NCBI GenBank assembly: GCA_029210695.1
Contig: JARGFH010000005.1
Location: forward strand, 48,834-112,833
Origin: Acidimicrobiia bacterium
GTDB taxonomy: Bacteria; Actinomycetota; Acidimicrobiia; Spongiisociales; JAHEDJ01
Direction: 5' to 3'
Length of the DNA: 64,000 bases
The first letter of the stretch is position 1, and every line of letters begins with the position of its first letter. A model generated the notes under the pieces. That model searched no databases, was not told the DNA's origin, and was given only the letters and a program-made list of their open reading frames with translations. A program made the translations under genes and the position numbers. Below are positions 7,048 to 51,844 of the stretch, in pieces.

Positions 7048-7054
7048 TCAGTCC

Positions 7055-8674
7055 GTGAAGCAAGGCGAACCGGGCAGGGTTGAGGAGACCGGGCTTTCGG
7101 GCCCGTCCGACCCTGCCGGTTCTCCGGTGAGCCGGGAGGAGCGATCCTCCCGGCTCTCGCTATCCGGTGGCACGATCCTCAAGCTGCTGTTCCTGGCGGC
7201 GGTCAACGCGATCGCACTGGCATCGATTCCCACCATTTGGACGGCGCGTTGGTGGGCCGGTCTGATCGTTGTCGTTGGAGCGACATTGCTCCTCGATATC
7301 GCCTACCTGACGAGACGGGCAATTCCCCTCAAGTATCTGATTCCCGGGACGATCTTTGCTCTCATCTTCCAGGTGGTCCCGGTCGTGTACTCGGGCTACA
7401 TCGCATTCACCAACTACGGCACCGGGAACGTGCTCACCAAGGAGCAGGTGCTCGACAGTATCTCTACTCGGGTATCCAACGTGCCCGGTGCTACCCGCTA
7501 CCAGGCCAACGTTCTGGCAGCGGACGGAGGTACGGGCGAGTTTGCTCTCCTCCTGACCGACGACGCAGGCAATCAGTTCCTTGGAACCCCCGAAGGCCTC
7601 CAGGATCCCGGTGACATCGTGCTCGACGACGCCGGCAAGGTGACGGAAGTCGACGGCTACTCAGCACTTGCGTTGCGCGATCTGGCCGATCGGCAAGACG
7701 AGTTGCAGAGCGAATTCGAGATCCCGACCGAACAGGGGGTCATCCGGGTCGTCACCGCCACCAGCGCAGCTCTCTATGAGGCCGTATTCCAATATGACGA
7801 AGCCTCCGACACGGTGACCAATATCGAGACGGGCATCACCTACACGCCGGTCGAGGGCAACTTCGTCAGCAGCACCGGCGAGAAACTCACCCCGGGTTGG
7901 GTGGCAAACATCGGCTGGAAGAACTTCAGTCGTATCTTCACCTCCCAGGCCATTCGCGGACCGTTCGTTCGGGTCTTTCTGTGGAACTATGCGTTTGCAC
8001 TTCTCAGCGTCCTGTTCACATTCGTGGTCGGACTTGGGCTGGCTATGACGCTCAACCATCCAACCATGCGCGGTAAGAAGATCTACCGCTCGTTCCTGAT
8101 CTTCCCGTATGCACTTCCGGCATTCCTGACCGCCCTCGTGTGGGCCGGGATGCTCAACCAGGAGTACGGGGTCGTCAACGATGTACTCAGCACAAACATC
8201 CCCTGGTTGCGTGACCCCTGGATGGCCAAGCTCTCCGTTCTCCTCGTCAACCTCTGGCTCGGCTTCCCCTACATGTTCCTGATCACGACGGGGGCATTGC
8301 AGGCGATCCCCGAAGATCTCAAGGAAGCTGCCTTCGTCGACGGAGCGACGCCGCGCCAGGCGTTTCGCCGAATCACCTTCCCGCTATTGCTGGTTTCCGT
8401 GGCCCCGCTGCTGATCGCCTCCTTCGCATTCAACTTCAACAACTTCAACATCATCTACCTCCTCAACGGCGGCGGTCCGCCGATTGCCGGCGCTCAAACT
8501 CCGGCCGGACATACCGACATCTTGATCAGCTACACCTACCGGCTGGCCTTTGAAGCCGGGAGTGGGTCGGACTTCGGTTTCGCCTCGGCTATAGCCATCA
8601 TGATCTTCATCATGGTCGCCACTATCTCGGCCCTTAGTTTCCGCCGTACCCGCGCTCTGGAGGACCTTGCCTGA
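7055..8674 (+). CDS. malF: Maltodextrin ABC permease with large extracytoplasmic loop
   Basis: YIAFTNY, NLWLGFPY, EAAFVDGA (EAA loop), FAFNFNNF, TDILISYTY. Confidence 0.9.
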   Translation: MKQGEPGRVEETGLSGPSDPAGSPVSREERSSRLSLSGGTILKLLFLAAVNAIALASIPTIWTARWWAGLIVVVGATLLLDIAYLTRRAIPLKYLIPGTIFALIFQVVPVVYSGYIAFTNYGTGNVLTKEQVLDSISTRVSNVPGATRYQANVLAADGGTGEFALLLTDDAGNQFLGTPEGLQDPGDIVLDDAGKVTEVDGYSALALRDLADRQDELQSEFEIPTEQGVIRVVTATSAALYEAVFQYDEASDTVTNIETGITYTPVEGNFVSSTGEKLTPGWVANIGWKNFSRIFTSQAIRGPFVRVFLWNYAFALLSVLFTFVVGLGLAMTLNHPTMRGKKIYRSFLIFPYALPAFLTALVWAGMLNQEYGVVNDVLSTNIPWLRDPWMAKLSVLLVNLWLGFPYMFLITTGALQAIPEDLKEAAFVDGATPRQAFRRITFPLLLVSVAPLLIASFAFNFNNFNIIYLLNGGGPPIAGAQTPAGHTDILISYTYRLAFEAGSGSDFGFASAIAIMIFIMVATISALSFRRTRALEDLA

Positions 8675-9597
8675 TGGTTGTCGACAGCACCCGAGTCGAA
8701 CAGAACACCACCGCTGAGCTGCAACGGCCGGGGCAGCAGTCCTCGTTCGTCAGGTGGTTCCGAAACACCGGCTGGCGTCATCTCGTGGCATGGCTGGCGC
8801 TCGTCTTTGCTCTGTTTCCGGTGATCTGGATCATCTCTGCCTCGTTCAACCCCCTCGGGTCGCTCCAGTCGCAGACCTTGATTCCCAGCAACGTGACCCT
8901 CGACAACTACAGGGAGTTGTTCGAAGAAACGGACTACGCCTACTGGTACAGGAACACGATGTTGATCGCCGGCGGCGCCGCGGCACTGCAGGTCTTGCTG
9001 GCGGCGTTTGCCGCCTACGCCTTCTCGCGGATGCGGTTTCGCGGTCGTCGGACCGGCCTGCTGACGGTGCTCTTGATTCAGATGTTCCCTCAACTCCTTG
9101 CCTTTGTGGCGATCTTCCTGATGATGGTGCAGATCAAGGGCGTGTTCCCCGCGGTCGGCCTGGGTACCAAGATCGGACTCCTCCTCATCTATCTAGGCGG
9201 AGCAATGGGCGTCAACGTATGGCTCATGAAGGGATTCTTCGACACGGTGCCGGTCGACCTCGACGAGTCCGCCAAGGTGGACGGAGCTACCCATTCGCAG
9301 ATCTTCTTCCGGATAATCCTGCCCCTCGTCGCGCCCATCCTGGCGGTGATCTTTCTCCTCTCCTTCATCATGTTGCTCAACGACTTCGTGCTGGCCGACG
9401 CGGTTCTGGGTCAAGGCAGTTCCAAGAACTACACGATGGCCGTGGGTCTCTATCGATTCCTGACCGACCAGTTCAATCAACGATGGGGACCCTTCGCCGC
9501 GGGTGCCCTTCTGCTGGGGCTCCCGGTCATCGTCCTGTTCTTATTCCTGCAGCGGTTCATCGTGTCCGGGCTGACCCAGGGTTCGGTCAAGGGATGA
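8674..9597 (+). CDS. malG: Maltodextrin ABC permease
   Basis: AYAFSRMRFRGR, LIQMFP, KGFFDTVPVDLDESAKVDGA, GLTQGSVKG; 1-nt overlap with malF. Confidence 0.92.
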   Translation: MVVDSTRVEQNTTAELQRPGQQSSFVRWFRNTGWRHLVAWLALVFALFPVIWIISASFNPLGSLQSQTLIPSNVTLDNYRELFEETDYAYWYRNTMLIAGGAAALQVLLAAFAAYAFSRMRFRGRRTGLLTVLLIQMFPQLLAFVAIFLMMVQIKGVFPAVGLGTKIGLLLIYLGGAMGVNVWLMKGFFDTVPVDLDESAKVDGATHSQIFFRIILPLVAPILAVIFLLSFIMLLNDFVLADAVLGQGSSKNYTMAVGLYRFLTDQFNQRWGPFAAGALLLGLPVIVLFLFLQRFIVSGLTQGSVKG

Positions 9598-9632
9598 GGC
9601 GCCGGTCGCTGGTCGCGAGTCGCGGGTAGCAC

Positions 9633-12600
9633 GTGCCGTCGTTGCACCGTCTTTTCGCACCGATCGTGGTTCTTGCTCTTGTGGCCGCAGCTTGCACCGG
9701 GGCCGCAAACGAAACGACCACGACCACGGCTCCCGTCACCACCCCCACGTCACTCCCACCGGCGGCCACTACGACCATGCCGGCCGTCTACGACGGACCA
9801 CCCCTGTACGTCAACCTGATGTGGCACCAGCACCAGCCGTTCTATCCCAAGGATGAAAACGGCGTCTATACCCGGCCGTGGGTGCGGCTACACGCCACCA
9901 AGGACTACTACGACATGGTCGCCATGGTCGGGAGCTACCCAGGTCTCAACGTCACGTTCAACCTGACCCCGGTGCTGCTGCGGCAACTCGAGGACCTGGC
10001 CGGCGGCGCCAAGGACATCTACTGGACGATGGCCGAACTGCCGGCATCGTCGCTGAGCGACGACGAGAAAACGTTCATTCTCGAGCGTTTCTTCGACGTC
10101 AATCCCCAGATCATCGCTCGCTTCCCACGCTTTCAAGAGTTAGCCGACAGCCGGGGCGGGTCGACCGGCGAAAGTGCCCTGGAACAATGGTCGAGCCAGG
10201 ACTTCCTCGACCTCCAGGTGCTCTTCAACCTGGCCTGGACCGATCCCGACTTCCTGGCGGAGGAGCCGCTGGCAGCCCTCGTAGCCAGGGAGCGCGATTT
10301 CACCGAGGAAGACAAGGTCGTTGTCTTCGGTGAGCACCTGCGCATCATCCAGGAGATCATTCCGCTGCACGCTCGTCTGTGGAAGGAGGGCGTGATCGAG
10401 GTCACCACCACGCCGCTGGCGCATCCCATCCTGCCGCTCATCGCCGACACCGACCTCGCCCTCGCCGGCGATCCCACCGCTCTACTGCCGGACGACCGCT
10501 TCCGGGAGGTCGCCGATGCCGACCAGCACATCGTCCGGGGCCTCGACGAAGCGGAACGGCTCCTCGGGGCCCGGCCTACCGGCATGTGGCCCGGTGAGGG
10601 ATCAGTGGCCGAACTGGTGATGGGCTTGTTCTCCAAAGACGGCGTCGAGTGGGTGGCGACCGGGGAGGACGTGCTGGCCAGGAGCCTCGACCTCGGTTCG
10701 TTCACCAGGAACGCAGATGAAACGGTGGAGCAGGGAGACCTGCTCTACCGGCCGTGGGCGGCCGAGCCGAACCGACCACCCAACGTTGGCATGTTCTTTC
10801 GCGATGTCCGTCTCTCCGATCTGATCGGCTTCGAGTATTCGGGAACCGATCCGCAGGAAGCTGCCGCCGATTTCTTGCAGCGGCTCGAGAACATCCGTGA
10901 CTCACTCGACATGCAGTCCGCCGCCGACGCCGGCCTGCCCTACGTGGTGTCGGTGATCCTCGACGGAGAGAACGCCTGGGAGAACTACCCCAACGACGGC
11001 AAGGATTTCCTCGACGCGCTCTACACCATGCTGACCACGACCGACTGGATCGAGACCATCACGCCGAGCGTGTACCTGGAGCGGTTCGGCGAACCCGAGG
11101 TGATCGACGAGGTGTTCCCGGCTGCGTGGTTCCAGCCGAACTTCGCCACCTGGATCGGAGAGAAAGAAGAAGCGACGGCCTGGGACTACCTCTACGACGT
11201 TCGCCGGGATCTCAGAGCGGCCGAGCAAAGCGGTGACTACGCCGCCGAAGCGCTCGAGGCCGCGTTTGAGACAATGCTCTACGCCGAAGGCTCCGACTGG
11301 TTCTGGTGGTACGGCGCCGACCAGGAATCCGGCGACGACGGCTACTTCGATCGCGCCTACCGTGAGCTGCTCGGGCAGGTCTACGACCTCCTCGACCTCG
11401 CGCGGCCGACCTTCATCCAGGTCCCGATCATCCCCCAACTGCCAGTGGTGGCGGACCAGCAACCCGCCGATCTCCTCACCGTGACGATCGACGGTACGAG
11501 GGAGGACGCATGGGACCGGGCGGGAGGCTACGGCGACACGGTGCCGGGAGGAATCGACTGGGCCTTCGACAAGGAGAACCTCTACTTGTTCGTCGGCGTA
11601 GGCGCAGGTAGTCGATTCGACATCTACCTGGGCGCGCCGTCCGGCTCGAGCAGGCCCGTGACCGAGTCGGGAGCGGTGCTGGGCTTTGGAGCGACCCACG
11701 TTCTTCGCTGGGACGGTGCGACGAGCTGTGTCGAAGCGCCGATCGGACCTACTCCGGATCCTTGCCTGCCGGTTGCCGGCGCGGTTCTCGAAGGTGGCGG
11801 TATCGAGTTCGCAGTGCCGCTGAGCGCGCTCGGTGCGCTCGAACCGGGCGACACGATTCTCGCCAAGTTCGTACAGGGCACGACCCCGTCGCCGGCGGCC
11901 GGACCGATGGCGTTTCAGGTGCCGGACATCTCCAATATCCAGGTGTTTCTCGACGTTGAAGACCCCGTTGGCGATGATCATGGTCCCGGGTCGTACACCT
12001 ATCCGGCCGATGTCGTCTTCCTGACGGGGAGCTACGACCTCAGCCGCTTTCAGGTCGGAACCGAAAACGGAGACCTGGTGCTCACGTTCGAGGTCGTTGC
12101 TCCCATTCAGAATCCGTGGGGTTCTCCCAGGAACTTCTCGGTCCAGACCTTCGACGTATACGTCGATCAGGATCCGGGGGCGGGAACCGGGGCGAGGCTG
12201 CTGATTCCCGGGCGCAACGCCTCACTCGAAGAGGGGGATGGGTGGGAGTACGGCATCACGCTGGAAGGATGGCAACCGGCGATCTATGTCGCCGACGCGG
12301 CGGGGGACCAGGAGGAAACCAGCCCTACGTTCAACGTGACCACGTTCGGGGACAAGGGCAAGGTCGTGGCCAGGATCCCCCTCGAGCTGTTCGGCGGAGG
12401 TGATCCCACCGGCTGGGGCTACGCGGCCGTCGTGCTGAGCCAGGAAGGTTATCCATCAACCGGAGTGCGGCGGGTTCGCGATGTCGAGGGCACCGCACAG
12501 CAGTGGGTCCTCGGTGGGGGACCGGCCGACCTCAACCACACCCGGATCATCGACGTTGCCTATCCCGCAGCCGGCGTCCAGGAGGACGGGCTGTCGGCGT

Positions 12601-12680
12601 ATGTGGCGGCCTCCTCCGGCTCGATCGACGACCTCGGTGCCGGCGACTTCGGAACGATTCCGCTCAACCTCGCCGACTGA
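9633..12680 (+). CDS. GH57 amylopullulanase-like lipoprotein with C-terminal glucodextranase-C/DOMON-like domain
   Basis: Lipobox VAAAC; HQHQP; WVRLHATKDYY; WPGEGSV (nucleophile Glu); LDGENAWENY (acid/base Asp); AEGSDWFWWYG; C-terminal DPVGDDHGPGSYTYP and NPWGSPRNFSVQTFDVY. Confidence 0.88.
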   Translation: MPSLHRLFAPIVVLALVAAACTGAANETTTTTAPVTTPTSLPPAATTTMPAVYDGPPLYVNLMWHQHQPFYPKDENGVYTRPWVRLHATKDYYDMVAMVGSYPGLNVTFNLTPVLLRQLEDLAGGAKDIYWTMAELPASSLSDDEKTFILERFFDVNPQIIARFPRFQELADSRGGSTGESALEQWSSQDFLDLQVLFNLAWTDPDFLAEEPLAALVARERDFTEEDKVVVFGEHLRIIQEIIPLHARLWKEGVIEVTTTPLAHPILPLIADTDLALAGDPTALLPDDRFREVADADQHIVRGLDEAERLLGARPTGMWPGEGSVAELVMGLFSKDGVEWVATGEDVLARSLDLGSFTRNADETVEQGDLLYRPWAAEPNRPPNVGMFFRDVRLSDLIGFEYSGTDPQEAAADFLQRLENIRDSLDMQSAADAGLPYVVSVILDGENAWENYPNDGKDFLDALYTMLTTTDWIETITPSVYLERFGEPEVIDEVFPAAWFQPNFATWIGEKEEATAWDYLYDVRRDLRAAEQSGDYAAEALEAAFETMLYAEGSDWFWWYGADQESGDDGYFDRAYRELLGQVYDLLDLARPTFIQVPIIPQLPVVADQQPADLLTVTIDGTREDAWDRAGGYGDTVPGGIDWAFDKENLYLFVGVGAGSRFDIYLGAPSGSSRPVTESGAVLGFGATHVLRWDGATSCVEAPIGPTPDPCLPVAGAVLEGGGIEFAVPLSALGALEPGDTILAKFVQGTTPSPAAGPMAFQVPDISNIQVFLDVEDPVGDDHGPGSYTYPADVVFLTGSYDLSRFQVGTENGDLVLTFEVVAPIQNPWGSPRNFSVQTFDVYVDQDPGAGTGARLLIPGRNASLEEGDGWEYGITLEGWQPAIYVADAAGDQEETSPTFNVTTFGDKGKVVARIPLELFGGGDPTGWGYAAVVLSQEGYPSTGVRRVRDVEGTAQQWVLGGGPADLNHTRIIDVAYPAAGVQEDGLSAYVAASSGSIDDLGAGDFGTIPLNLAD

Positions 12681-12691
12681 CCCCTGTTCCT

Positions 12692-12749
12692 CTGCGTTTT
12701 CGCGCGGCATTCGCTCGCCATAGGAAGACATCGCCGCGCCAGAACGCAG
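12692..12749. repeat. REP-like palindrome, family A, copy 2 (imperfect)
   Basis: CTGCGTTTTCGCGCGGC ... GCCGCGCCAGAACGCAG between the convergent GH57 and GH13 genes. Confidence 0.75.
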
Positions 12750-14621
12750 TTAGAACGAGGCGATCAGGCCGGACCAGGGTGGGACTGCGGCGACGCGAAG
12801 GTCGAGCGGTTCGGGCGACACCTCGCCGGTGCCGTGCAGGATATCGACCCGGTCGGCCGTCACCGGGATGAAACAAGACAGAGCCTCCTCGGCTCGATTG
12901 ACGATGACCAGGAGGCGCTCATCTGCGTTCGTTCTCGTGAAGGCGAAGGCATCGCTGTCGAGGTAGACGACCTCGAACGTCCCATACCGGAGGGCGGGGT
13001 GATCTCTGCGGAGCCGGCCCAGAGTCCTGGTCTGGGTCAGGAGATCCTGATTCCACGATTGCTCGTCGTGCCACGGGAAGGCTCCCCGGGATCCGGGGTC
13101 CGATCCTCCGGTCATGCCGACCTCGTCTCCGTAGTACAACCCGGGGGCACCCGGCACGGTCATTTGGGCGAAGACGGCCAGCGCGAGGCGCTGTGCGTCA
13201 TCGCCGGCCATCGTGAGAAATCGCTCGGTGTCGTGGCTGCCGATCAGATTCTGGCTCGCCAGGACGACCTCGGGCGCATACCTCGCATGCATCCGGGTGA
13301 GGCCTTCGACAAAACGGTCGGCGTCGATCGTCGGTTCGGCGAAGAAATCGACGGCCAACTCCCGGAATTGATAGTTCATGGTGGCGTCGAATCGATCCCC
13401 CTGGAGCCACGGCATCGCATCCCCCATGATTTCGGCGATTAGGTACGTGTCCGGGTCGACCGACTTGACGGCCCGGCGGAAGTCGACCCAGAAATCGTGG
13501 TCGATGTAGCGCGCCACATCCATCCGCCAGCCGTCGATGTCGTAGTTGGTAATCCAGTGAGTGGCCACCTCGAGGAAGTACTGCCGGGCATCCGGATTGG
13601 TGAGCACCAATCTCGGCATGGTCGGCACTCGATACCAAGAGGCGAAGGATGGCTCGACCGGTGGGCCGTCATCATCGGATTCGATCAGGGTCAATCCGGA
13701 GGCCTTGATGGTGTTCACCTGGTAGTCCAGGAATTGTTCGGCCCGCTCGCCGTAGAGATCTCGCGCGACGCGCGGCCGGATCTGCACCGTGAGCGGGTAT
13801 GAGTGGACGTCGAACCAATCCCAATAATCCGAAGCGGGGCCATTTGCGATCATGTCCTGAAAAGCGAAGAAGTGCGGATGGCAGTGATTGAAGGAAGCGT
13901 CCAGTATCACCTTGATGTCCCGGGAGTGCAGCGCCTCGACCATTTCCCTCAACGCTTCATTACCGCCCAGGCGTTGATCGACCTCGTAATAGTCGACGGC
14001 GTCGTAGCGATGCACCGACAGTGAACGGAATACCGGGTTGAGATACACGGCATCGATCCCGAGGTCCGCCAGGTAGTCAGCCTTCTGGGCAATCCCACGG
14101 AGGTCGCCACCCTGGAATCGGCGGGGGTGCGGTGGGCTGCCCCACGGGTCGGCGTCGGACGGGGTCAGCGTCGGGTCACCGCTGGCGAAGCGATCAGGGA
14201 ATATCTGATAGATAACTGCGCCGCGTGCCCACTGCGGTACCTCCACGTGCTGCGTCTGCGCCACATCGAGACCCCAGTAGTCGAGGCGCTCGGCCGCGTT
14301 CGTTATGCCGGAAGGAACCAGGTACACGGGTTGATCGCTGCCGAACCGGAGGGCGAACGAGTACTCGAAAGTGGATCCTGCCGGGTCGACGGTTGCCTCC
14401 CAGTAGATGAAACGCCGGTCCTCGGCATAGCGGTCCATGGTCGTGCCGGACCCATCGAGTCGGGCGAGCACCGCTTCGGTGAAACCATGTTCGGTGATGA
14501 GTCTGAAGCGTATGCTTCCGTCTGCTCGGCGCTCGCAGAAGGCAACGTCGGACGGGTCGTAGCGGACGTCGTAGGGGAAGAGATGTCCAGGTCTTCTGTA
14601 GTACTGGTAGACGCGCTCCAC
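12750..14621 (-). CDS. GH13 alpha-amylase family, neopullulanase/cyclomaltodextrinase-like (cytoplasmic)
   Basis: IYQIFPDRFA, GGDLRGI, HRYDAVDY, LDASFNH, DGWRMDVA, AEIMG, LIGSHDTER, YYGDEVGM. Confidence 0.92.
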   Translation of the reverse strand: MERVYQYYRRPGHLFPYDVRYDPSDVAFCERRADGSIRFRLITEHGFTEAVLARLDGSGTTMDRYAEDRRFIYWEATVDPAGSTFEYSFALRFGSDQPVYLVPSGITNAAERLDYWGLDVAQTQHVEVPQWARGAVIYQIFPDRFASGDPTLTPSDADPWGSPPHPRRFQGGDLRGIAQKADYLADLGIDAVYLNPVFRSLSVHRYDAVDYYEVDQRLGGNEALREMVEALHSRDIKVILDASFNHCHPHFFAFQDMIANGPASDYWDWFDVHSYPLTVQIRPRVARDLYGERAEQFLDYQVNTIKASGLTLIESDDDGPPVEPSFASWYRVPTMPRLVLTNPDARQYFLEVATHWITNYDIDGWRMDVARYIDHDFWVDFRRAVKSVDPDTYLIAEIMGDAMPWLQGDRFDATMNYQFRELAVDFFAEPTIDADRFVEGLTRMHARYAPEVVLASQNLIGSHDTERFLTMAGDDAQRLALAVFAQMTVPGAPGLYYGDEVGMTGGSDPGSRGAFPWHDEQSWNQDLLTQTRTLGRLRRDHPALRYGTFEVVYLDSDAFAFTRTNADERLLVIVNRAEEALSCFIPVTADRVDILHGTGEVSPEPLDLRVAAVPPWSGLIASF

Positions 14622-44009: not shown

Positions 44010-44855
44010 TCAGCGGGAGCGGCGCCGGTTCCAGCGTCGGTAGAGGTCTACCCAGAGCGGGTCGAATCCGGCCTCGTCGGCGGCCGGCTGATCCTCCACG
44101 GGATCCGGAGTCGCCGGCGTCGTTTGTCCACGGAGTTCCGCCAAGCGCTCCCGGAGGAACACCACCTCGGTCTCGGCTTTGGCGGCGCGTTCCCTGGCAT
44201 CCGCCAACTGCTGGCCGGCCTCGTGGAGGTTGCCCAACTGGTTGAGCATCTTGTTCCACGCATCCAGCGGAACCAGCATCGTGCCTTCAGGGACCTCGGG
44301 CGTGACCGGCTGTGAAACGATTGGTTGTGTTTCAGGGTGATCGGTCGCCGGTTGCTCGTCGCCAGTTGGAGCCTCTTCGGCAGGTTCCGTCGACTGTGCC
44401 TGTACGTCTTCGTCTCCGTCTTCGTCCTTGTCTTCGTCTTCGTCCTTGTCTTCGTCAGACGCGTCCGACCCGCTCGCGTCCACTTCTTCACTAGCGACGA
44501 GCGACTCGCGACTCGGAACTTCTTGACTCGCGACTCGCGACTCGCGACTCGGAACTTCTTCACTAGCGACCCGCGACTCGCGACTCGCGACCTGGGTGTG
44601 CTGGCGCCCCAGGTGATCGGCCCAGGCGATCACCTCGGACAACTCCACGTATCTCCGGTCTCCGGTCTCGTCCAGCTCGAAGCGTGAATCGATGCGCTGC
44701 TTGCGGGCCCAGTTCCGGATGGTCGAAGCGGGGATCCCGGTGAGTTCTCCGGCGTCGTGCAAATCGACCCAGCGTTCGTTGCTTGACGTGTCCTGGGGGA
44801 GCGGGTCGGCCGGTCTGGTTTGCTGGCTGGGGACGGGTCGTCGTGAATCTGTCAT
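44010..44855 (-). CDS. Hypothetical protein: Xis/MerR-like HTH, acidic repeat linker, coiled coil
   Basis: DAGELTGIPASTIRNWARK; repeat linker; LHEAGQQLADARERAAKAETEVVFLRERLAEL. Confidence 0.75.
   Translation of the reverse strand: MTDSRRPVPSQQTRPADPLPQDTSSNERWVDLHDAGELTGIPASTIRNWARKQRIDSRFELDETGDRRYVELSEVIAWADHLGRQHTQVASRESRVASEEVPSRESRVASQEVPSRESLVASEEVDASGSDASDEDKDEDEDKDEDGDEDVQAQSTEPAEEAPTGDEQPATDHPETQPIVSQPVTPEVPEGTMLVPLDAWNKMLNQLGNLHEAGQQLADARERAAKAETEVVFLRERLAELRGQTTPATPDPVEDQPAADEAGFDPLWVDLYRRWNRRRSR
44482..44592. repeat. Three 36-nt tandem units built from GCGACTC heptamers inside a CDS
   Basis: Units begin ACTTCTT at 44482, 44518, 44554. Confidence 0.9.
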
Positions 44856-44975: not shown

Positions 44976-45596
44976 ATGAGGCTGGTCGTGGCGGCGGTGC
45001 TGGTTGCACTGGTTGCTTCCGCCTGCGAAACCGTCGAATCCGAGGGAGCGCCCGCCACCACCACGACCGAACGCCTCGAGGTGCTCGATGTGACCGTGAC
45101 GACGAGACCGGGGGTCATTCCGAGGGACGCCACGGCCGGATCCGGCGTGCTGCGGGTTGCCCAGCACAGCAGCGCCACGATGGTCACCACAACGACGTCG
45201 ACTTCGACGACGACCTCCACCACTACCACCACCCCGACCCGACCCCTCGTCCCGTTCCCGGCCGTGCCGTTGCTCACCATCTTCGAGGCGGCTGAGAAGA
45301 AAGCGGTCCACGTGGTCTCCGACCCCTACACCATTGAACCGGACGGGTGCGAGGGGGTCATCTGGACGGCCGGCGGCAACGATTGGTCGGCATTCGTGGT
45401 GACTTCGGCGACGGCCGACGGATACTGCGAGATATGGTTGGGCGGGCAATCAGAGAACCCCGATTACACCGGCAACCCGTTCCTGTACTGCCTCTTGCCT
45501 GAAGATCACGACCCCGTGAAGGTGGCCTCAGACGCCAATTCCGACTGGGTGGCCGAACCGGGGCTATGTGCCCCAACCGGGTTCGACCAGGGCTGA
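44976..45596 (+). CDS. Hypothetical lipoprotein
   Basis: Lipobox VASAC, Thr stalk, four further Cys in the C-terminal domain. Confidence 0.7.
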   Translation: MRLVVAAVLVALVASACETVESEGAPATTTTERLEVLDVTVTTRPGVIPRDATAGSGVLRVAQHSSATMVTTTTSTSTTTSTTTTTPTRPLVPFPAVPLLTIFEAAEKKAVHVVSDPYTIEPDGCEGVIWTAGGNDWSAFVVTSATADGYCEIWLGGQSENPDYTGNPFLYCLLPEDHDPVKVASDANSDWVAEPGLCAPTGFDQG

Positions 45597-45646: not shown

Positions 45647-46204
45647 ATGCCAGATGAAGCAGAGATTCGTAAGGTCGTTCGACGCGTCGTCGAAGGCCTC
45701 GTCCCGGACGACGCCACGCCACCCGGCGGGGAGCAGGCAGAGCACCCCGTGATTGCTGTCGGAGCCGATCATGGTGGATATCCGCTCAAGGAACGGATCG
45801 GGTTTCGGCTGAAGGAGGCCGGCTACGAGGTGATCGACTGCGGTACGGATTCCGCAGATCCGGTGGATTATCCGGACATCGCCCACAAGGTGGCCCGCAA
45901 GGTGGCGGACGGCGAGGCAACCTACGGTGTCATCATTGACGGCGCCGGCATCGGGTCTGCCATAGTGGCCAACAAGGTCCCCGGAGTGCGTGCAGCTCTC
46001 TGTTACGACCTTTCGAGCGCCCGCAACAGTCGGGAACACAATCATGCCAACATCCTCACGCTTGGAGCGGGATTGATCGGCGACGGGCTAGCGTGGCAGA
46101 TCACACAGGAATGGCTCGCCACGCCGTGGGCACCCGGCCGGCATGCTGCCCGCATCACCAAGATGATGGAATACGAGCAGCGCTATGTGAGAGATGAAAC
46201 ATGA
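45647..46204 (+). CDS. rpiB: RpiB/LacAB family sugar-phosphate isomerase with N-terminal extension (BMC-associated)
   Basis: VGADHGG..LK, VDYPDIA, ANKVPGVRAALC, REHNHANILTLG. Confidence 0.9.
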   Translation: MPDEAEIRKVVRRVVEGLVPDDATPPGGEQAEHPVIAVGADHGGYPLKERIGFRLKEAGYEVIDCGTDSADPVDYPDIAHKVARKVADGEATYGVIIDGAGIGSAIVANKVPGVRAALCYDLSSARNSREHNHANILTLGAGLIGDGLAWQITQEWLATPWAPGRHAARITKMMEYEQRYVRDET

Positions 46205-47052
46205 ATCGCGAAGAACTCATTGAGGCGGTGACCGCAGAAGTGCTGGCTGCGCTGTCTGGTTCCACCGACCCTGATGCCGACTGCGAAGGTGCCTGCGCCG
46301 CCCACAGCCCCGACAAGGTGCGGAAGATCGTCGCCAATGGGGCCGGGCGGGTCAGTTACCGGGGAAACGGCGCGGAGGTTCCCCTCGACCTCGCCAAGTT
46401 CATCGATCACACGCTGCTCAAACCCGATGCCACAGCCGATGACATCGACCTGCTCTGTAGAGAAGCCATGGACTACGGATTTGCCGCCGTGTGCGTGAAC
46501 CCGGCCTGGGTGAAGCGGGCGGCCACCAACCTGCGCGGCACCGATGTCCGGGTCGCCTCGGTCGTCGGGTTCCCGTTCGGAGCGACCACCCCGGACATCA
46601 AGGCCATGGAAACCCGCAGAGTGCTGCGGGACGGCGCCCGTGAGATCGACATGGTGATCAACATCGGAGCCCTCAAATCGGGTCAATTCGATGAAGTTCG
46701 AGAGGACATCGCCCGGGTCTCGGATGCGTGCCACGAGGTCGGGGCCATCAACAAGGTGATCATCGAGACCAGCCTCCTCCAGGACGAGGAGAAAGTCATG
46801 GCCTCTCACCTGGCCAAGGAAGCCAAGGCCGATTACGTCAAGACATCCACCGGATACGCCGGTGGGGGAGCAACGGTCCATGACGTGCTGCTCATGCGTG
46901 AGACGGTTGGACCGGACATGGGAGTCAAAGCGTCTGGCGGTGTCCGCAACCGGGCAGATGCCGAAGAGATGATCGCGGCCGGCGCCACTCGAATCGGCGC
47001 TTCGGCCGGTATCTCAATCGTCACGGGAGGAACATCGAGTGAGCAATATTGA
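46201..47052 (+). CDS. deoC: Deoxyribose-phosphate aldolase with N-terminal extension (BMC-associated)
   Basis: [53 protein letters not shown]. Confidence 0.96.
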
Positions 47053-47662
47053 CCTGCGGTCCTTCGTCTTTCTAGACAGCCTTCAACCGCAGTACGCGGC
47101 GTTCATCGGCACGACTGCCCAGGGGTTCTTGCCGCTCGCATACGATGCATCACTGTTCGTCGAGATCGCGCCTGGAATCGAGATCAACCGTGTCACCGAC
47201 ATCGCCTTGAAGTCGAATCAGGTCAAGCCCGGCATGCAGATCGTCGAGCGTTACTACGGACTTCTCGAGATCCACTCGCCTGAGCAGGCGGAGGCCCGGG
47301 GGGCGGGGGCTGCGATCCTCGATGCGATCGGCCTGGCCGAGTCGGATCGCCTGAAGCCGAAAATTCTCTCGAGTCAGATCGTTCGCCGAATCGACGATCA
47401 TCAGGCGCAACTGATCAACCGGATGCGACATGGGAACATGATCATCCCGGGGCAGACGCTCTACGTGCTCGAGTGTGAGCCGGCCGCCTACGCGGCGCTG
47501 GCCGCCAACGAGGCCGAGAAAGCCTCCAAGATCAACGTGCTGGAGGTGCGGGCATTCGGGTCGATGGGCCGGGTCTACCTCGGTGGAGAGGAAGCGGACA
47601 TCGACGTGGGTTGGAGGGCGGCCGTTGCCGCTTTGGAAGGTTTGGAAGGCCGCGAGCAATAA
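47039..47662 (+). CDS. BMC-T shell protein, stacking double-layer (CcmP/CsoS1D-like) type
   Basis: [51 protein letters not shown]. Confidence 0.88.
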
Positions 47663-47680
47663 CGACGAGGAGGAGAGCCA

Positions 47681-47977
47681 ATGGCCGACGCCCTTGGAAT
47701 GATCGAAGCGAGAAGCTTCGCAGCAATGGTCGAAGCTGCCGACGCGATGGTGAAGGCAGCCAAAGTGGAACTGGTCTCCTATGAGGAGACGGGAGGCGGC
47801 TACGTGACCGCCGTCGTCCGCGGTGATGTCGCAGCCGTGAAGGCGGCCGTAGAGGCAGGCGTACGCGGCGCCGAGCGTGTCGGTGAAGTGGTCGCAAGCC
47901 ATGTCATCGCCCGTCCGCACACCAACATCGATCTCGTGCTCCCGCTCGGCCGTGCCGACGAGGCAGGCAAGGAGTAA
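47681..47977 (+). CDS. BMC-H hexameric shell protein
   Basis: [34 protein letters not shown]. Confidence 0.96.
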
Positions 47978-47988
47978 GGAGGGAGCGC

Positions 47989-48276
47989 ATGCTCCTCGGA
48001 CGTGTATCTGGCACCCTCGTCGCCAGCCGGAAAGAGCCGCGCTTATCGGGGCTCAAGTTCCTCGTGCTCAGCCAACTCGACGTCGACAACACAGAAACCG
48101 GCGGCTACGTGGTAGCCGCCGATGCGGTCGGGGCCGGCGTCGGGGAGGTCGTTCTCTATGCAACCGGCAGCTCGGCAAGGCAGACCGAGTTCACACACGA
48201 ACGGCCGTGTGACGCGGTGGTCATGGCGATTGTCGACACCTGGGAGGTCGGCGGTGATGAGCGCTACCACAAGTAA
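47989..48276 (+). CDS. BMC-P vertex pentamer (EutN/CcmL family) 1
   Basis: [36 protein letters not shown]. Confidence 0.95.
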
Positions 48277-48279
48277 TCC

Positions 48280-49743
48280 ATGAGCCGTCTCACCAGCGAA
48301 GAGATCCGGGCGATCATCGACCGGGTCGATCGGAGGCTCGGCGAGGTTTCCTCATCGGACCGTCCGGCATCGACGCTGCGTGCTCAGGCGGAGCTGGCAG
48401 CCTCGGAAGCTGAGTTAGGCGACGGCATCTACCGGACCATCGACGAAGCGGTGGCCGCCGCCGGTCGAGCCCACCGAGCTTATGCGGCCATGGGCCTCGA
48501 GACCCGCAAAGCGATCGTGGCGTCCATGCGGAAATCCATGCTCGAGCATGCAGAGCAACTCGCCTTGCTGGCCCATACCGAGACCGGGCTGGGGAGGTAT
48601 GAGGACAAGATCCGCAAGAACAGGGTCGTTGCACTCAAGACACCAGGTCCCGAGGATCTCGAACCGGTAGCTATCAGCGGCGATCGAGGCATGGCAGTGA
48701 TCGAATGGGCGCCGTTCGGGTTGGTCGGCGCCATCACGCCGACCACGAATCCAACGTCGACGATCATCAACAACGCCATAGCCATCGTATCCGCCGGCAA
48801 CGCCGCCGTCTTCAATGTTCATCCGAACGCCAAGCGGGTCTCAGCCGAGAACATCCGCTTGCTCAACCGGGCGATCGAGGCAGCCGGCGGCCCGCCGGAT
48901 CTGATCACGGCCATCCCCGATCCAACGATCGACTCTGCCAAAGCGTTGATGCACCATCCCGACGTACCGGTCCTCCTCGTCACCGGTGGTCCGGGTGTGG
49001 TGCGCGAGGCGCAGCAGACGTCCAAGCGGGCGGTGGCGGCCGGGCCGGGAAATCCGCCGGCGGTGGTCGATGAGACCGCCGATATCGACCGGGCAGCTGC
49101 CGCCATCGTGGCCGGTGCATCGTTTGACAACAACATCATCTGTGTTGACGAGAAGGAAGCGATCGTGGTCGACTCAGTCGCCGACCGCCTCCTGCGGGCC
49201 ATGGCGAACAGCGGGGCGTACCTGCTCAAGCAGCATGAACTCCAGCGACTCGAGCGAGTCATCTTTCGGGAACTCGGCCAGCCGAACAAACCCGGCGTCA
49301 TCAACCCGCAGTGGATCGGCAAGAACGCCTCCGAGATCCTGGCCCAAATCGGCGTGCAGGTTGCCGACGATGTCCGCCTGATCGTCGCCGATGTACCTCG
49401 CCAGCACAGTCTGGTTTGGACGGAGCAGATGATGCCGGTCTTCCCGGTGGTCCGGGTTCCGAACGTTGACGTGGCCATCGACCTCGCCGTCGAGGTCGAG
49501 CACGGTTTCCGGCACACCGCCGGCATCCACTCGACCAACGTCGAAACCATCACGCGCATGGCCAAGGCGATGAACTGCTCGATCTTCGTGGCCAACGGAC
49601 CGTTTTATGCCGGCCTCGGCGAGGGAGGCGAGGGGTATTCGTCGTTCTCGATCGCCAGTCCGACCGGTGATGGCCTCACCCGCCCGCGTACCTTCTCGCG
49701 GGAGCGCCGGGTCACCGTGGTCGGTGCCCTGAGGATTGTCTAA
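48280..49743 (+). CDS. CoA-acylating aldehyde dehydrogenase (EutE/PduP-like) with encapsulation peptide
   Basis: ITPTTNPTST, VTGGPGVV, GPGNPP, FDNNIICVDEK (catalytic Cys), EQMMPV, EHGFRHTA, TGDGLT. Confidence 0.93.
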   Translation: MSRLTSEEIRAIIDRVDRRLGEVSSSDRPASTLRAQAELAASEAELGDGIYRTIDEAVAAAGRAHRAYAAMGLETRKAIVASMRKSMLEHAEQLALLAHTETGLGRYEDKIRKNRVVALKTPGPEDLEPVAISGDRGMAVIEWAPFGLVGAITPTTNPTSTIINNAIAIVSAGNAAVFNVHPNAKRVSAENIRLLNRAIEAAGGPPDLITAIPDPTIDSAKALMHHPDVPVLLVTGGPGVVREAQQTSKRAVAAGPGNPPAVVDETADIDRAAAAIVAGASFDNNIICVDEKEAIVVDSVADRLLRAMANSGAYLLKQHELQRLERVIFRELGQPNKPGVINPQWIGKNASEILAQIGVQVADDVRLIVADVPRQHSLVWTEQMMPVFPVVRVPNVDVAIDLAVEVEHGFRHTAGIHSTNVETITRMAKAMNCSIFVANGPFYAGLGEGGEGYSSFSIASPTGDGLTRPRTFSRERRVTVVGALRIV

Positions 49744-50333
49744 TGCCCATGCAGCCGGCCGTCGCTCTCCTCGAGTTCGACTCGATTGCAATCGGCATCG
49801 AAACCGGCGACGCCATGATCAAACGGGCACCGCTCGATGTGATCAAAGCCGGGACGGTTCATCCCGGGAAGTACCTGGTGCTGGTTGGTGGCCGGGTGGC
49901 CGATGTCGAAGAGGCGCTCGAGGCAGGCCGCCTCGTGGGGTCCGAGCACCTGATCGACGAGATGGTGCTGCGTGATGTGCACGATGACGTGGTGGCGGCG
50001 CTGGCCGGGTTTCGCCACGCCGGTGATGGTGAAGCGCTTGGTGTCATTGAGACGACGACCGTGGCGGCCATCATCGAAGCTGCAGACGCCGGCGTGAAGG
50101 GAGCGAGGGTCACGTTGCGGGAGATCCGCATGGCAGATGGATTGGGCGGCAAGGGATACCTCCTGTTCGACGGCCCGGTCGCCGAGGTCGAAGCGGCCGT
50201 CGAGATCGGCTCCGATCGGGTGCCCGATCAGCTCGTCGCCCGGCGGGTGATTGCCCAGATCCATGCCGAGATGGACGAGAACCTGGTAGCCGACGGTCGA
50301 TTCCGCCCGCGGATGCGAGGTGGAACCCAGTGA
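49743..50333 (+). CDS. BMC-T shell protein, PduT-like
   Basis: LEFDSIAIGIETGDAMIK, PGKYLVLVGG, ADAGVKGA, GLGGKGY. Confidence 0.9.
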   Translation: MPMQPAVALLEFDSIAIGIETGDAMIKRAPLDVIKAGTVHPGKYLVLVGGRVADVEEALEAGRLVGSEHLIDEMVLRDVHDDVVAALAGFRHAGDGEALGVIETTTVAAIIEAADAGVKGARVTLREIRMADGLGGKGYLLFDGPVAEVEAAVEIGSDRVPDQLVARRVIAQIHAEMDENLVADGRFRPRMRGGTQ

Positions 50334-50400
50334 GCCGGGGTGCGATCTGCAGCGGTTCTGTGCGACGCTTCGAGTCGCCGGGAGGTCGCAACTGGGTCGG

Positions 50401-50460
50401 TCCCCCCGGAGGGGGGAAGGTACCTGCGCCGGAGCGAAGCGGAGGCGGAGGTAGGGGGGC
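50401..50460. repeat. GC-rich two-hairpin intergenic element
   Basis: TCCCCCC-GGA-GGGGGGA and TACCTGCGCC-GGAGCGAAGCGGA-GGCGGAGGTA. Confidence 0.55.
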
Positions 50461-50508
50461 CAACCGGCAAACACCGTCCGCGGAACAAGATACCCGTCGG
50501 GGGGGTTC

Positions 50509-50784
50509 ATGCAGTTAGGCCGTGTCATCGGGACGGTGGTGGCTACCGAAAAGACCCCGAACCTCGAAGGGGTGAAGTTTCTCATCGTGCAGCCGCTGAC
50601 GAAGGAACTCGAGCCGACCGGCAGGGCAGTGGTAGCCGCCGACGGGGTAGCGATGACCGGACCCGGCGAACTCGTCTATATCGTCGATTCGCGCGAGGCT
50701 GCCCAGGCCATGCCGGAACCATTCGTGCCGGTGGACCACGCGATTGTCGGCATCGTTGATGACGTGACCCTGGAGGGCTCATGA
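50509..50784 (+). CDS. BMC-P vertex pentamer 2
   Basis: MQLGRVIGTVVATEK, VAADGV, VDHAIVGIVD. Confidence 0.95.
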   Translation: MQLGRVIGTVVATEKTPNLEGVKFLIVQPLTKELEPTGRAVVAADGVAMTGPGELVYIVDSREAAQAMPEPFVPVDHAIVGIVDDVTLEGS

Positions 50785-50790
50785 ATCTCG

Positions 50791-50818
50791 AGTCGCGAGT
50801 CGCGGGTCGCGGGTTGCG
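50791..50818. repeat. Heptamer array (A/G)GT(C/T)GCG x4
   Basis: AGTCGCG AGTCGCG GGTCGCG GGTTGCG. Confidence 0.85.
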
Positions 50819-50854
50819 CCGTACAAGGTTCGGGTACCCCGAAGGGGAGTCCGC

Positions 50855-51124
50855 ATGAAGATCGCCAGAGTGGTCGGCACGGTCGTCTCCACGATCAGCG
50901 CACCGATCTTCGATGGGCAACGGCTCCTGCTCTGCGACTACGTCGACCCGACCGGTGAGCCGACGGGCGGCTACGTCATCGCCGTCGACGTGGTCGATGC
51001 CGGGGCGGGCGAAACGGTCCTCATCCTCGATGAGGGTACGAGCGCCCGGCAAATCATGGGCGAGAAGGTGGCGCCGATTCGGGCGATTGTCGTAGGTGTG
51101 GTGGATGAAGTGGAGGCGTCGTGA
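50855..51124 (+). CDS. BMC-P vertex pentamer 3
   Basis: MKIARVVGTVVST, AVDVVDAGAGETVL, IRAIVVGVVD. Confidence 0.95.
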   Translation: MKIARVVGTVVSTISAPIFDGQRLLLCDYVDPTGEPTGGYVIAVDVVDAGAGETVLILDEGTSARQIMGEKVAPIRAIVVGVVDEVEAS

Positions 51125-51783
51125 GCATTAATCCGCAGCTCTACTCCAGATTGCTACGTTCTCATCCGTGGCACGGTGTTCCGATCGGCGCGGGGGCTCC
51201 TGCGACCGTCACCGCCTATATCGAGATCGTCCCTTCCGACACCGTCAAATACGAACTGGACAAGGAGACCGGCATTCTCAAGGTCGACCGGCCGCAGCAG
51301 TTCTCGAATGTCTATCCGACGTTGTACGGGTTGATTCCACAGACGTACTGTGGAGAACGGATCGCCGAGTTGTGCATGGAGCGCGCCTCGCGCACCGGCA
51401 TCGTGGGTGATGGCGATCCCCTCGATGTCTGCGTTCTGGCCGAGAAGTCGATCACACACGGCGACATCCTGTTGCCCGTCGTACCGATCGGCGGATTGCG
51501 GATGATCGACGGCGAAGAGGCCGACGACAAGATCATCGCCGTCATGAGGGGCGACGCCATATACGGGCACATGAAGGACATCTACGAGTGTCCGCCGGCG
51601 CTCATCGACCGTCTCAAGCACTACTTCCTGACCTACAAGCAGGCTCCGGGACCCGGCACGCGCAAAACGGAGATCACCCACGTGTACGGCCGCGAAGAAG
51701 CGCACGAGGTGATCGAGCGCAGCATGGCGGACTATGCAGAATCGTACGGCGACATACAGGGTTTGCTCGGCGAGCTCAGCTGA
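51121..51783 (+). CDS. ppa: Family I soluble inorganic pyrophosphatase
   Basis: HPWHG, VKYELDK, VDRP, YGLIPQT, DGDPLDV, ADDKIIAV; GTGA overlap with BMC-P3. Confidence 0.93.
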   Translation: MSINPQLYSRLLRSHPWHGVPIGAGAPATVTAYIEIVPSDTVKYELDKETGILKVDRPQQFSNVYPTLYGLIPQTYCGERIAELCMERASRTGIVGDGDPLDVCVLAEKSITHGDILLPVVPIGGLRMIDGEEADDKIIAVMRGDAIYGHMKDIYECPPALIDRLKHYFLTYKQAPGPGTRKTEITHVYGREEAHEVIERSMADYAESYGDIQGLLGELS

Positions 51784-51787
51784 GCCC

Positions 51788-51834
51788 TTGACATGATGAC
51801 ACCATTCTGACATTATTTCGATGTCAGAATGGTG
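51788..51834 (+). promoter_or_regulatory. TTGACA box plus perfect 14-bp inverted repeat (operator-like) upstream of MFS gene
   Basis: TTGACA at 51788; CACCATTCTGACAT-TATTTCG-ATGTCAGAATGGTG. Confidence 0.7.
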
Positions 51835-51844
51835 AAAGAGGCAG

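Follow-up and report, generated by a model that had tools for sequence, protein, structure and literature searches.

A probable sugar phosphate utilization microcompartment operon of subtype SPU3, followed by a pyrophosphatase gene, in an Acidimicrobiia bacterium

Sugar phosphate utilization (SPU) organelles, which rank among the commonest bacterial microcompartments (BMCs), are believed to recycle the deoxyribose of DNA in the environment, and native hosts have not yet served for the study of any of them. A 64-kb stretch of DNA from an Acidimicrobiia bacterium, a class abundant in soils, sediments and waters, carries an operon of this kind (contig JARGFH010000005.1; "the window" below means the whole 64-kb stretch that was analysed, and all coordinates refer to it). 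Ten co-directional genes on the + strand (45647-51783) encode, in this order, an RpiB-like protein, deoxyribose-phosphate aldolase (DERA, the deoC product), the double-stacking shell trimer BMC-T(dp), the shell hexamer BMC-H, a shell pentamer BMC-P, an aldehyde dehydrogenase (AldDH), the shell trimer BMC-T(s), two further BMC-P proteins (P2 and P3), and an inorganic pyrophosphatase (PPase, encoded by ppa). A preliminary description of the same DNA had proposed that the host, the lack of certain enzymes and the terminal ppa gene together may mark an undescribed SPU subtype. Does the operon represent a new subtype, or a further member of a subtype already on record? We propose that it is very probably an ordinary member of subtype SPU3 in an Acidimicrobiia bacterium, operating by the published SPU mechanism.

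The reference for this assignment is the 2021 BMC catalog (Sutter et al. 2021, Nat Commun 12:3809, Supplementary Data 2), in which SPU loci fall into seven subtypes and SPU3 is represented by 31 loci. In the SPU3 description the enzymes are AldDH, pfam01791 and pfam02502 only, with the ribose-5-phosphate isomerase-like (RPI) gene in first place and N-terminal encapsulation peptides (EPs) on AldDH and the pfam01791 protein; the shell comprises one standard BMC-H, a BMC-P triplet, a CcmP-like T(dp), and a T(s) with neither a PduS partner nor a pore cysteine; and the hosts include Actinobacteria (Sutter et al. 2021). As a general rule for SPU loci, two members of the BMC-P triplet lie side by side. 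We assigned the window proteins to families by open reading frames (ORFs) and Pfam scan, by NCBIfam equivalog cut-offs, and by alignment to solved relatives in the PDB. Every sequence feature of the SPU3 description (enzymes, extensions, BMC-H, BMC-P triplet, T(dp) and T(s)) was found in the nine-gene core that precedes ppa, including RPI before DERA, the N-terminal extensions, two adjacent BMC-P genes, and a T(s) lacking both PduS and the pore cysteine; the exchange of the catalytic Cys of RPI for Asp is likewise common to SPU3 and the window. Pfam and NCBIfam bear out the earlier view of a metabolosome built on DERA, an RpiB-like protein and an acylating AldDH.

What the locus lacks also agrees with the catalogued subtype. 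When the locus and most of the remaining window ORFs of 90 aa or more were scanned with Pfam, no phosphotransacylase (PTAC), alcohol dehydrogenase (AlcDH), PduS (Complex1_51K/RnfC) or triose-phosphate isomerase was detected, and elsewhere in the window there were no satellite BMC genes, no deo or other nucleoside or deoxyribose catabolic genes, and no genes for PTAC, acetate or other kinases, or alcohol dehydrogenase. The absence of AlcDH, PTAC and kinase genes noted at the outset is therefore real within the window; since it is the norm for SPU3, it gives no sign of a new subtype. The catalogued SPU3 T(dp) clade, annotated as "bland, ccmP-like", contains proteins of 207-210 aa from the Actinobacteria metagenome-assembled genomes (MAGs) RBG_16_68_12 and RBG_16_70_17 and from other MAGs, and the NCBI taxonomy gives "unclassified Bacteria" for the catalog's BMS3Bbin01. 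With SPU3 recorded in Actinobacteria MAGs and the same gene order recurring in Acidimicrobiia, the proposal of an undescribed subtype failed. The window differs from the SPU3 description in the ppa gene overlapping the last BMC-P gene, found in close relatives only; in a small lipoprotein gene lying between the divergent regulator candidate and rpiB; and in its host, of which the catalog text names the phylum Actinobacteria only and not the class Acidimicrobiia.

The gene order of the core is that of many public genomes. T(dp) has thousands of homologues, of which the best 120 share 82% identity or more with it and several are named Acidimicrobiia bacterium; the proteins 95-97% identical to it carry this NCBI name, and the window is syntenic with GCA_035471805.1, which upholds the Acidimicrobiia-like host read earlier from the letters of the sequence. 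In a scan of species-representative genomes, T(dp) relatives were encoded in at least 582 stretches; the best 80 of these, one genome per species, formed our set of related loci (designated by L-numbers such as L002 and L007), onto each of which the window proteins were mapped. The nine core genes stand in the exact order of the window in 54 of the 80 loci, in phyla that the catalog lists under SPU3; a further 18 are cut by contig ends but consistent with it, and eight deviate. The hosts among these best 80 include many Acidimicrobiia, other Actinomycetota, Chloroflexota, Thermoanaerobaculia (Acidobacteriota), Planctomycetota, Marinimicrobia, Verrucomicrobiota, Gemmatimonadota and Lentisphaerota. 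The cassette is widespread and rigidly conserved, and its copy in the window is an ordinary one. There is no conserved tenth gene after the cassette, and the downstream genes in other genomes are heterogeneous. Judged by its gene content, the core is a new instance of a catalogued subtype and not a new system, in a class already rich in public copies. Our literature search on BMCs in Acidimicrobiia returned reference-list mentions or nothing relevant.

Other subtypes agree with the window in part. SPU2 shares its three enzymes, a CcmP-like T(dp) and the presence of a T(s) with the window, but it possesses a fourth BMC-P (an extra copy of the green clade) and often a second BMC-H, about 80% of its T(s) proteins have a pore cysteine, and its hosts are mainly Bacteroidetes, Spirochaetes and candidate phyla. 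In the window there are three BMC-P genes and a single BMC-H gene, and the T(s) pore position is His. SPU6, which is confined to Chloroflexi and is the sole SPU subtype with enzymes characterised in vitro, resembles the window in its DERA, Asp-variant RPI and AldDH, in one BMC-H, a BMC-P triplet and a T(dp), and in the lack of PTAC. In SPU6, AldDH carries its EP at the C-terminus, T(dp) belongs to another clade, T(s) is absent, and the regulator is of the GntR/UTRA type, whereas the window has a predicted N-terminal EP, a T(s), a regulator candidate of the HTH_17 type and an Acidimicrobiia host. SPU5 is without RPI, and SPU1, SPU4 and SPU7 have PTAC and no T(dp).

The shell set of one BMC-H, two BMC-T and three BMC-P, as first described, was supported. 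The closest solved relative of T(dp) is CcmP of the beta-carboxysome (E 8e-84, 65% identity), followed by Haliangium T(dp) proteins and then by CsoS1D (1e-51), although its score of 330 bits against the NCBIfam CcmP model falls below the cut-off of 340. Its weak PF00936 match is the pattern expected for a permuted domain, and the match to PF27545 (CsoS1D_N) is a precomputed one to the same protein on a public contig. Its alignments identify T(dp) as a CcmP-like, double-stacking permuted trimer, for which a gated pore is predicted. An ER pair at residues 70-71, which we take to be the pore gate, is kept in 89 of 89 relatives (conservation here and below was counted across the related loci). The second trimer had been taken for a T(sp), wrongly: both of its halves match PF00936 in the normal register, and it is a non-permuted, PduT-like T(s), with PduT proteins as closest solved relatives (E 3e-38). 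The T(s) motif TVHPGK aligns with TI(C/S)PGK of PduT, so that His stands where PduT has its pore cysteine, presumably Cys38, the Fe-S ligand. At this position (residue 40, window 49860-49862) the relatives have His in 43 copies, Gln in 26 and Cys in one. Three His at the pore of the T(s) trimer could bind a metal or gate an anion. The locus has one BMC-H gene only, and its product carries the standard interface motifs KAAK and ARPH. The three BMC-P proteins are 40-43% identical in pairwise comparison and are therefore true paralogues; the genes of paralogues 2 and 3 are adjacent, and that of paralogue 1 lies apart.

The order of the genes and their overlaps, as given in the preliminary description, were confirmed by the ORFs, by Pfam and by direct reading of the sequence. 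The RpiB/DeoC junction is an ATGA overlap, DeoC and T(dp) overlap by 14 nt with a GTG start, AldDH and T(s) meet at TAATG, and P3 and ppa meet at GTGA, a 4-nt overlap; the longer spacers are those between T(s) and P2 (175 nt) and between P2 and P3 (70 nt). The start codon of P2 is supported by its relatives, which begin at the equivalent codon.

In the RpiB-like protein, PF02502 spans residues 36-173 and is preceded by a 35-aa N-terminal extension with an amphipathic helix, EAEIRKVVRRVVEGL (hydrophobic moment 0.69), a predicted encapsulation peptide. Its motif IIDGAG aligns with ICGTG of Clostridium thermocellum RpiB, with Asp in place of Cys and Ala in place of Thr; the catalytic-base position is Cys in the E. 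coli enzyme as in that of C. thermocellum. In the relatives, all 78 of the 78 locus copies have Asp at this position, and four second RpiB copies that are not part of a BMC locus have Cys. These second copies keep the Cys; the Asp variant in the BMC locus is therefore not the isomerase of the cell. In all SPU RPIs an Asp replaces the catalytic Cys, a hallmark of SPU; the RPI of SPU6, whose isomerase activity is negligible, associates with DERA in a complex, and this DERA is active on deoxyribose 5-phosphate (Dwyer et al. 2024, Commun Biol 7:1562). Because of the Asp in place of the catalytic Cys, the window protein is most likely inactive as an isomerase; it most likely serves as a DERA-binding packaging scaffold instead. 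The label "rpiB" holds for the family (PF02502) and most likely not for the activity.

The window DERA, the signature enzyme of the operon, passes the TIGR00126 deoC equivalog and aligns to solved DERAs from residue 62 (E 1e-83), with PF01791 spanning residues 66-271 and an N-terminal extension of about 60 aa. In that alignment VKTSTG and a second catalytic motif are conserved; together these presumably correspond to D102, K167 and K201 of the E. coli enzyme, the catalytic Asp and both Lys. Every SPU DERA is described as having such an N-terminal extension. AldDH scores 621 bits against NCBIfam PRK15398 (cut-off 403), which identifies it as CoA-acylating, of the PduP/EutE type. Its closest solved relative is the BMC-associated acylating AldDH 5jfl (E 2e-131), to which it aligns from residue 30; the catalytic Cys in FDNNIICVDEKE is retained in 74 of 74 relatives. 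The N-terminus of AldDH contains an encapsulation-peptide-like amphipathic helix, EEIRAIIDRVDRRLGEV (residues 6-22, moment 0.67), followed by a linker, and the alignment to 5jfl gave no C-terminal extension.

The same conservation of the RPI variant bears on an alternative in which the SPU3 architecture serves another substrate, the Asp-variant RpiB-like protein being an active isomerase through which a rarer sugar phosphate reaches the aldolase. RPI is kept universally, carries a tag, and lies next to DERA or is fused to it, and an Asp kept in 78 of 78 copies, with no decay, speaks for selection on a chemical or structural role; the SPU study itself allows for other substrates (Dwyer et al. 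2024). We consider this unlikely, given that the SPU6 RPI has negligible ribose-5-phosphate isomerase activity while the SPU6 DERA acts on deoxyribose 5-phosphate, that the window DERA passes the equivalog with its catalytic motifs kept, and that SPU5 loci dispense with RPI altogether.

For the window locus as an SPU3 member, the mechanism we propose is taken over by homology from the published SPU model. 2-Deoxyribose 5-phosphate, from the breakdown of nucleosides or DNA, would enter a protein shell made of BMC-H hexamers, the PduT-like structural trimer, the CcmP-like gated double trimer and the three pentamer paralogues. DERA, targeted via its N-terminal extension, would cleave this substrate to glyceraldehyde 3-phosphate, which would leave the shell, and acetaldehyde, and the N-terminally tagged AldDH would turn the trapped acetaldehyde into acetyl-CoA with NAD+ and CoA. 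Because SPU3 is without PTAC, AlcDH and PduS, acetyl-CoA, CoA and NAD(H) are presumed to cross the large gated pore of T(dp). The Asp-variant RpiB-like protein, with a targeting helix of its own, would be the DERA-binding packaging scaffold, and the divergent HTH_17-type gene is the likely regulator. The ppa gene would be co-transcribed and translationally coupled to the last BMC-P gene, its product being an ordinary cytosolic PPase that arrived within a ppa-MFS-GCS2 block.

Several points weigh against reading the locus as an ordinary SPU3 member with this mechanism. SPU3 is formally defined by the catalog's hidden Markov models of colour clades (BMC Caller), and the locus is here assigned by gene content and shell features; likewise, T(dp) is tied to SPU3 by the description of its clade and not via a named catalogued accession among its close homologues. 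Experimental data exist only for the SPU6 enzymes (DERA active, RPI inactive, the two forming a complex). The remaining points concern PPase: the 4-nt overlap of P3 and ppa is conserved in close relatives, and in two Chloroflexota loci a short PPase gene, unrelated to that of the window, separates BMC-H from the first BMC-P.

The ppa gene is the sole element of the operon outside the SPU3 description. It encodes a long-form family I PPase (closest solved relative 6we5, 217 aa), and it is found with the same overlap, and with MFS and GCS2 genes downstream, in the close relatives L002, L003, L089 and L090 (GCA_035471805.1, GCA_024641325.1 and two metagenome contigs), in which T(dp) is about 95% and PPase 82-87% identical to the window proteins. 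Other, more distant Acidimicrobiia SPU3 loci have no ppa and end at the third BMC-P, after which unrelated, variable genes follow. In L007, whose T(dp) is 84% identical, the ppa-MFS-GCS2 block is missing although its chromosomal anchors match those of the window (Peptidase_S26 and Ni-SOD upstream, Glucosamine_iso and Abhydrolase_11 downstream), which fits an insertion in the lineage of the window. The N and C termini of PPase align end to end with homologues of 77-80% identity that lie outside BMC loci and adjoin acetyl-CoA synthetase genes; PPase therefore has no extension of the encapsulation type. An encapsulation peptide on PPase was also considered as a candidate and rejected, the termini being as in the non-BMC homologues and the hydrophobic moment low. 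None of 83 loci encoding PPases 58-80% identical to that of the window had BMC genes nearby. The gap between ppa and the MFS gene (51788-51835) contains a promoter-like site (TTGACA, 17 nt, CATTAT; 10 of 12 matches) overlapped by a perfect 14-bp inverted repeat, CACCATTCTGACAT / ATGTCAGAATGGTG, which resembles an operator of an MFS-GCS2 unit that is separate from the operon; with both lying before the MFS gene, ppa therefore closes the transcription unit.

These data were weighed against a new SPU variant in which PPase is a working accessory of the organelle, either encapsulated or as a dedicated cytosolic helper that removes the pyrophosphate (PPi) of a feeder or exit reaction. The GTGA overlap shared by the four close relatives, the position of ppa at the end of the operon ahead of a gene with its own promoter-like site and operator-like palindrome, and the different short PPase inside the two Chloroflexota BMC loci would suit such a role, and a literature search for PPase in BMC loci found no description of a link. 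On the other hand, no core SPU reaction makes or uses PPi, neither the window PPase nor the Chloroflexota PPases carry an EP-like extension, the other Acidimicrobiia SPU3 loci are without ppa, and the related PPases are encoded away from BMC genes. Two independent adjacencies in about 85 loci are suggestive and, by a rough estimate, not clearly beyond chance. We regard an accessory role for PPase as improbable. It is equally doubtful that PPase was recruited into SPU3-like operons at least twice (long form in Acidimicrobiia, short form in Chloroflexota); such recruitment would suggest that a step tied to the organelle releases PPi and has so far gone unrecognised, perhaps where the substrate is supplied or where cofactors or acyl-CoA are handled. 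Our reading is that ppa is probably a co-transcribed, lineage-specific tail gene for a cytosolic enzyme and does not define a new subtype; the terminal ppa noted earlier is real and overlaps the last BMC-P gene, but it is restricted to close relatives, has no extension, and belongs to a PPase family otherwise found outside BMC loci. It would matter only if a functional pyrophosphate link were shown.

The least credible alternative, a Haliangium ochraceum-type (HO) or other non-SPU metabolosome that merely resembles SPU, can hardly be maintained: BMC-H is 81% identical to HO-5815 over 93 aa, T(dp) matches the HO trimers at E 1e-69 to 1e-72, and the catalog notes a BMC-P triplet and similar T(dp) proteins as common to HO and SPU, but DERA and RPI, the first two genes of the window operon, are absent from the main HO loci, T(dp) lies nearer to CcmP and T(s) nearer to PduT than to the HO trimers, there is one T(dp) only, and the synteny with the nine-gene SPU3 cassette is exact. 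The resemblance proposed earlier to the Haliangium shell, the structural model system, holds for BMC-H; the trimers are nearer to CcmP and PduT.

As an SPU3 member, the window locus is a clean and compact example from Acidimicrobiia that adds little new knowledge. Its value lies in a well-delimited ten-gene candidate for heterologous work on shell and enzymes, and in comparative data: an Asp in the RPI of every locus copy, His or Gln at the T(s) pore, and a nine-gene order fixed across phyla. The features of the operon, its surroundings and the related loci are collected in Table 1.

Table 1. Positions of the operon genes, of neighbouring genes in the window, and of features in related loci (positions with an L-number are those of the respective locus)
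Feature	Position	Strand	Length, family match and remarks
RpiB-family protein (SPU "RPI")	45647-46204	+	185 aa; PF02502 E 3e-51
DERA/DeoC	46201-47052	+	283 aa; PF01791 E 2e-19; TIGR00126 273 bits (cut-off 117)
BMC-T(dp)	47039-47662	+	207 aa; weak PF00936 only; PF27545 CsoS1D_N
BMC-H	47681-47977	+	98 aa; PF00936 E 2e-29; main shell facet protein
BMC-P paralogue 1	47989-48276	+	95 aa; PF03319 E 2e-27; vertex protein
CoA-acylating AldDH (PduP/EutE type)	48280-49743	+	487 aa; PF00171 E 3e-38
BMC-T(s)	49743-50333	+	196 aa; two PF00936 domains, E 6e-34
BMC-P paralogue 2 (P2)	50509-50784	+	91 aa; PF03319 E 6e-26
BMC-P paralogue 3 (P3)	50855-51124	+	89 aa; PF03319 E 5e-24; final gene of the nine-gene cassette
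Inorganic pyrophosphatase (ppa)	51121-51783	+	220 aa; PF00719 E 3e-45; NF001886 324 bits (cut-off 247)
Candidate regulator, HTH_17/MerR-like	44010-44855	-	about 281 aa; weak Pfam HTH_17 E 9e-4; divergent from rpiB
Predicted lipoprotein	44976-45596	+	206 aa; signal peptide, lipobox LVASAC, Thr/Ser-rich linker; no Pfam family
Anchors common with L007	27130-28050 and 57265-60407		extra blocks in the window on both sides of the SPU3 operon
Second RpiB copies	L007:18630-19079, L008:10570-11019, L058:19762-20226, L062:18714-19145	-	catalytic Cys kept
Short family I PPases, Chloroflexota	L047:3175-3720, L075:11170-11706		32% identity to window PPase; no extension
Post-cassette genes, other phyla (phosphopentomutase-like, class II aldolase-like, second DeoC)	L088:9564-10739; L067:14399-15103; L036:15314-15949; L045:14192-14860

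The divergent gene upstream of rpiB is likely the regulator of the operon, as judged from its position. Its ORF runs to 44936; according to the DNA alignment with L002 and L089, the start conserved in these relatives is the ATG at 44853-44855. The predicted protein consists of an N-terminal helix-turn-helix, an acidic tandem repeat, SRESRVASEEVP, in about three copies, a D/E-rich stretch and a C-terminal helical segment; it had no NCBIfam or PDB relatives, and its homologues occupy the same divergent position beside rpiB in at least 17 loci of the Acidimicrobiia type. The lipoprotein gene that separates it from rpiB in the window is not found at this position in L002 and L089, in which the gap between regulator and rpiB is about 175-210 bp; the roughly 45 nt directly 5' of the rpiB start are conserved in comparison with these two loci.

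In the 5' region and the spacers of the operon no RNA element was matched in Rfam at E values up to 1, and the 175-nt spacer between T(s) and P2 exhibited neither sequence conservation nor unusual stability (z = -0.8). The longest ORF in the gap between T(s) and P2 (50340-50759) is spurious as a gene, having no Pfam match and being out of frame with the real BMC-P. The spacer between P2 and P3 contains, at 50790-50818, four imperfect 7-nt direct repeats (GAGTCGC, GAGTCGC, GGGTCGC and GGGTTGC), after which a short CCCC-GAA-GGGG hairpin lies just ahead of the P3 start.

Some minor observations were made in the related loci. The second RpiB of several Acidimicrobiia, which is shorter, has no extension and keeps the catalytic Cys, lies 5-8 kb from the SPU3 locus; in L007 and L008 it adjoins genes for polyphosphate kinase and a NUDIX/His_Phos protein. 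Directly after the cassette, second DeoC copies occur in Chloroflexia (tblastn); elsewhere the cassette is followed by what we take, from the N-terminal sequence, to be a phosphopentomutase-like ORF (Lentisphaerae) and a class II aldolase-like ORF. No family was matched by the small ORFs that follow P3 in L006 and L007. In the Chloroflexota locus L075, an AT-rich spacer (L075:10990-11140) packed with short tandem and inverted repeats precedes the PPase gene, a PduS-like gene (Complex1_51K/RnfC) stands between AldDH and T(s), and there is no RPI or DERA upstream. The Glucosamine_iso ORF of the window is unusually long, at 636 aa against 227-229 aa in the relatives. Elsewhere in the window, an alpha-glucan utilisation cluster unrelated to the BMC extends over 5701-14621 and comprises a sugar ABC transporter (SBP_bac_8 and two permeases), an alpha-amylase family enzyme, and a 1015-aa GH57 enzyme with a C-terminal module of the glucodextranase type.

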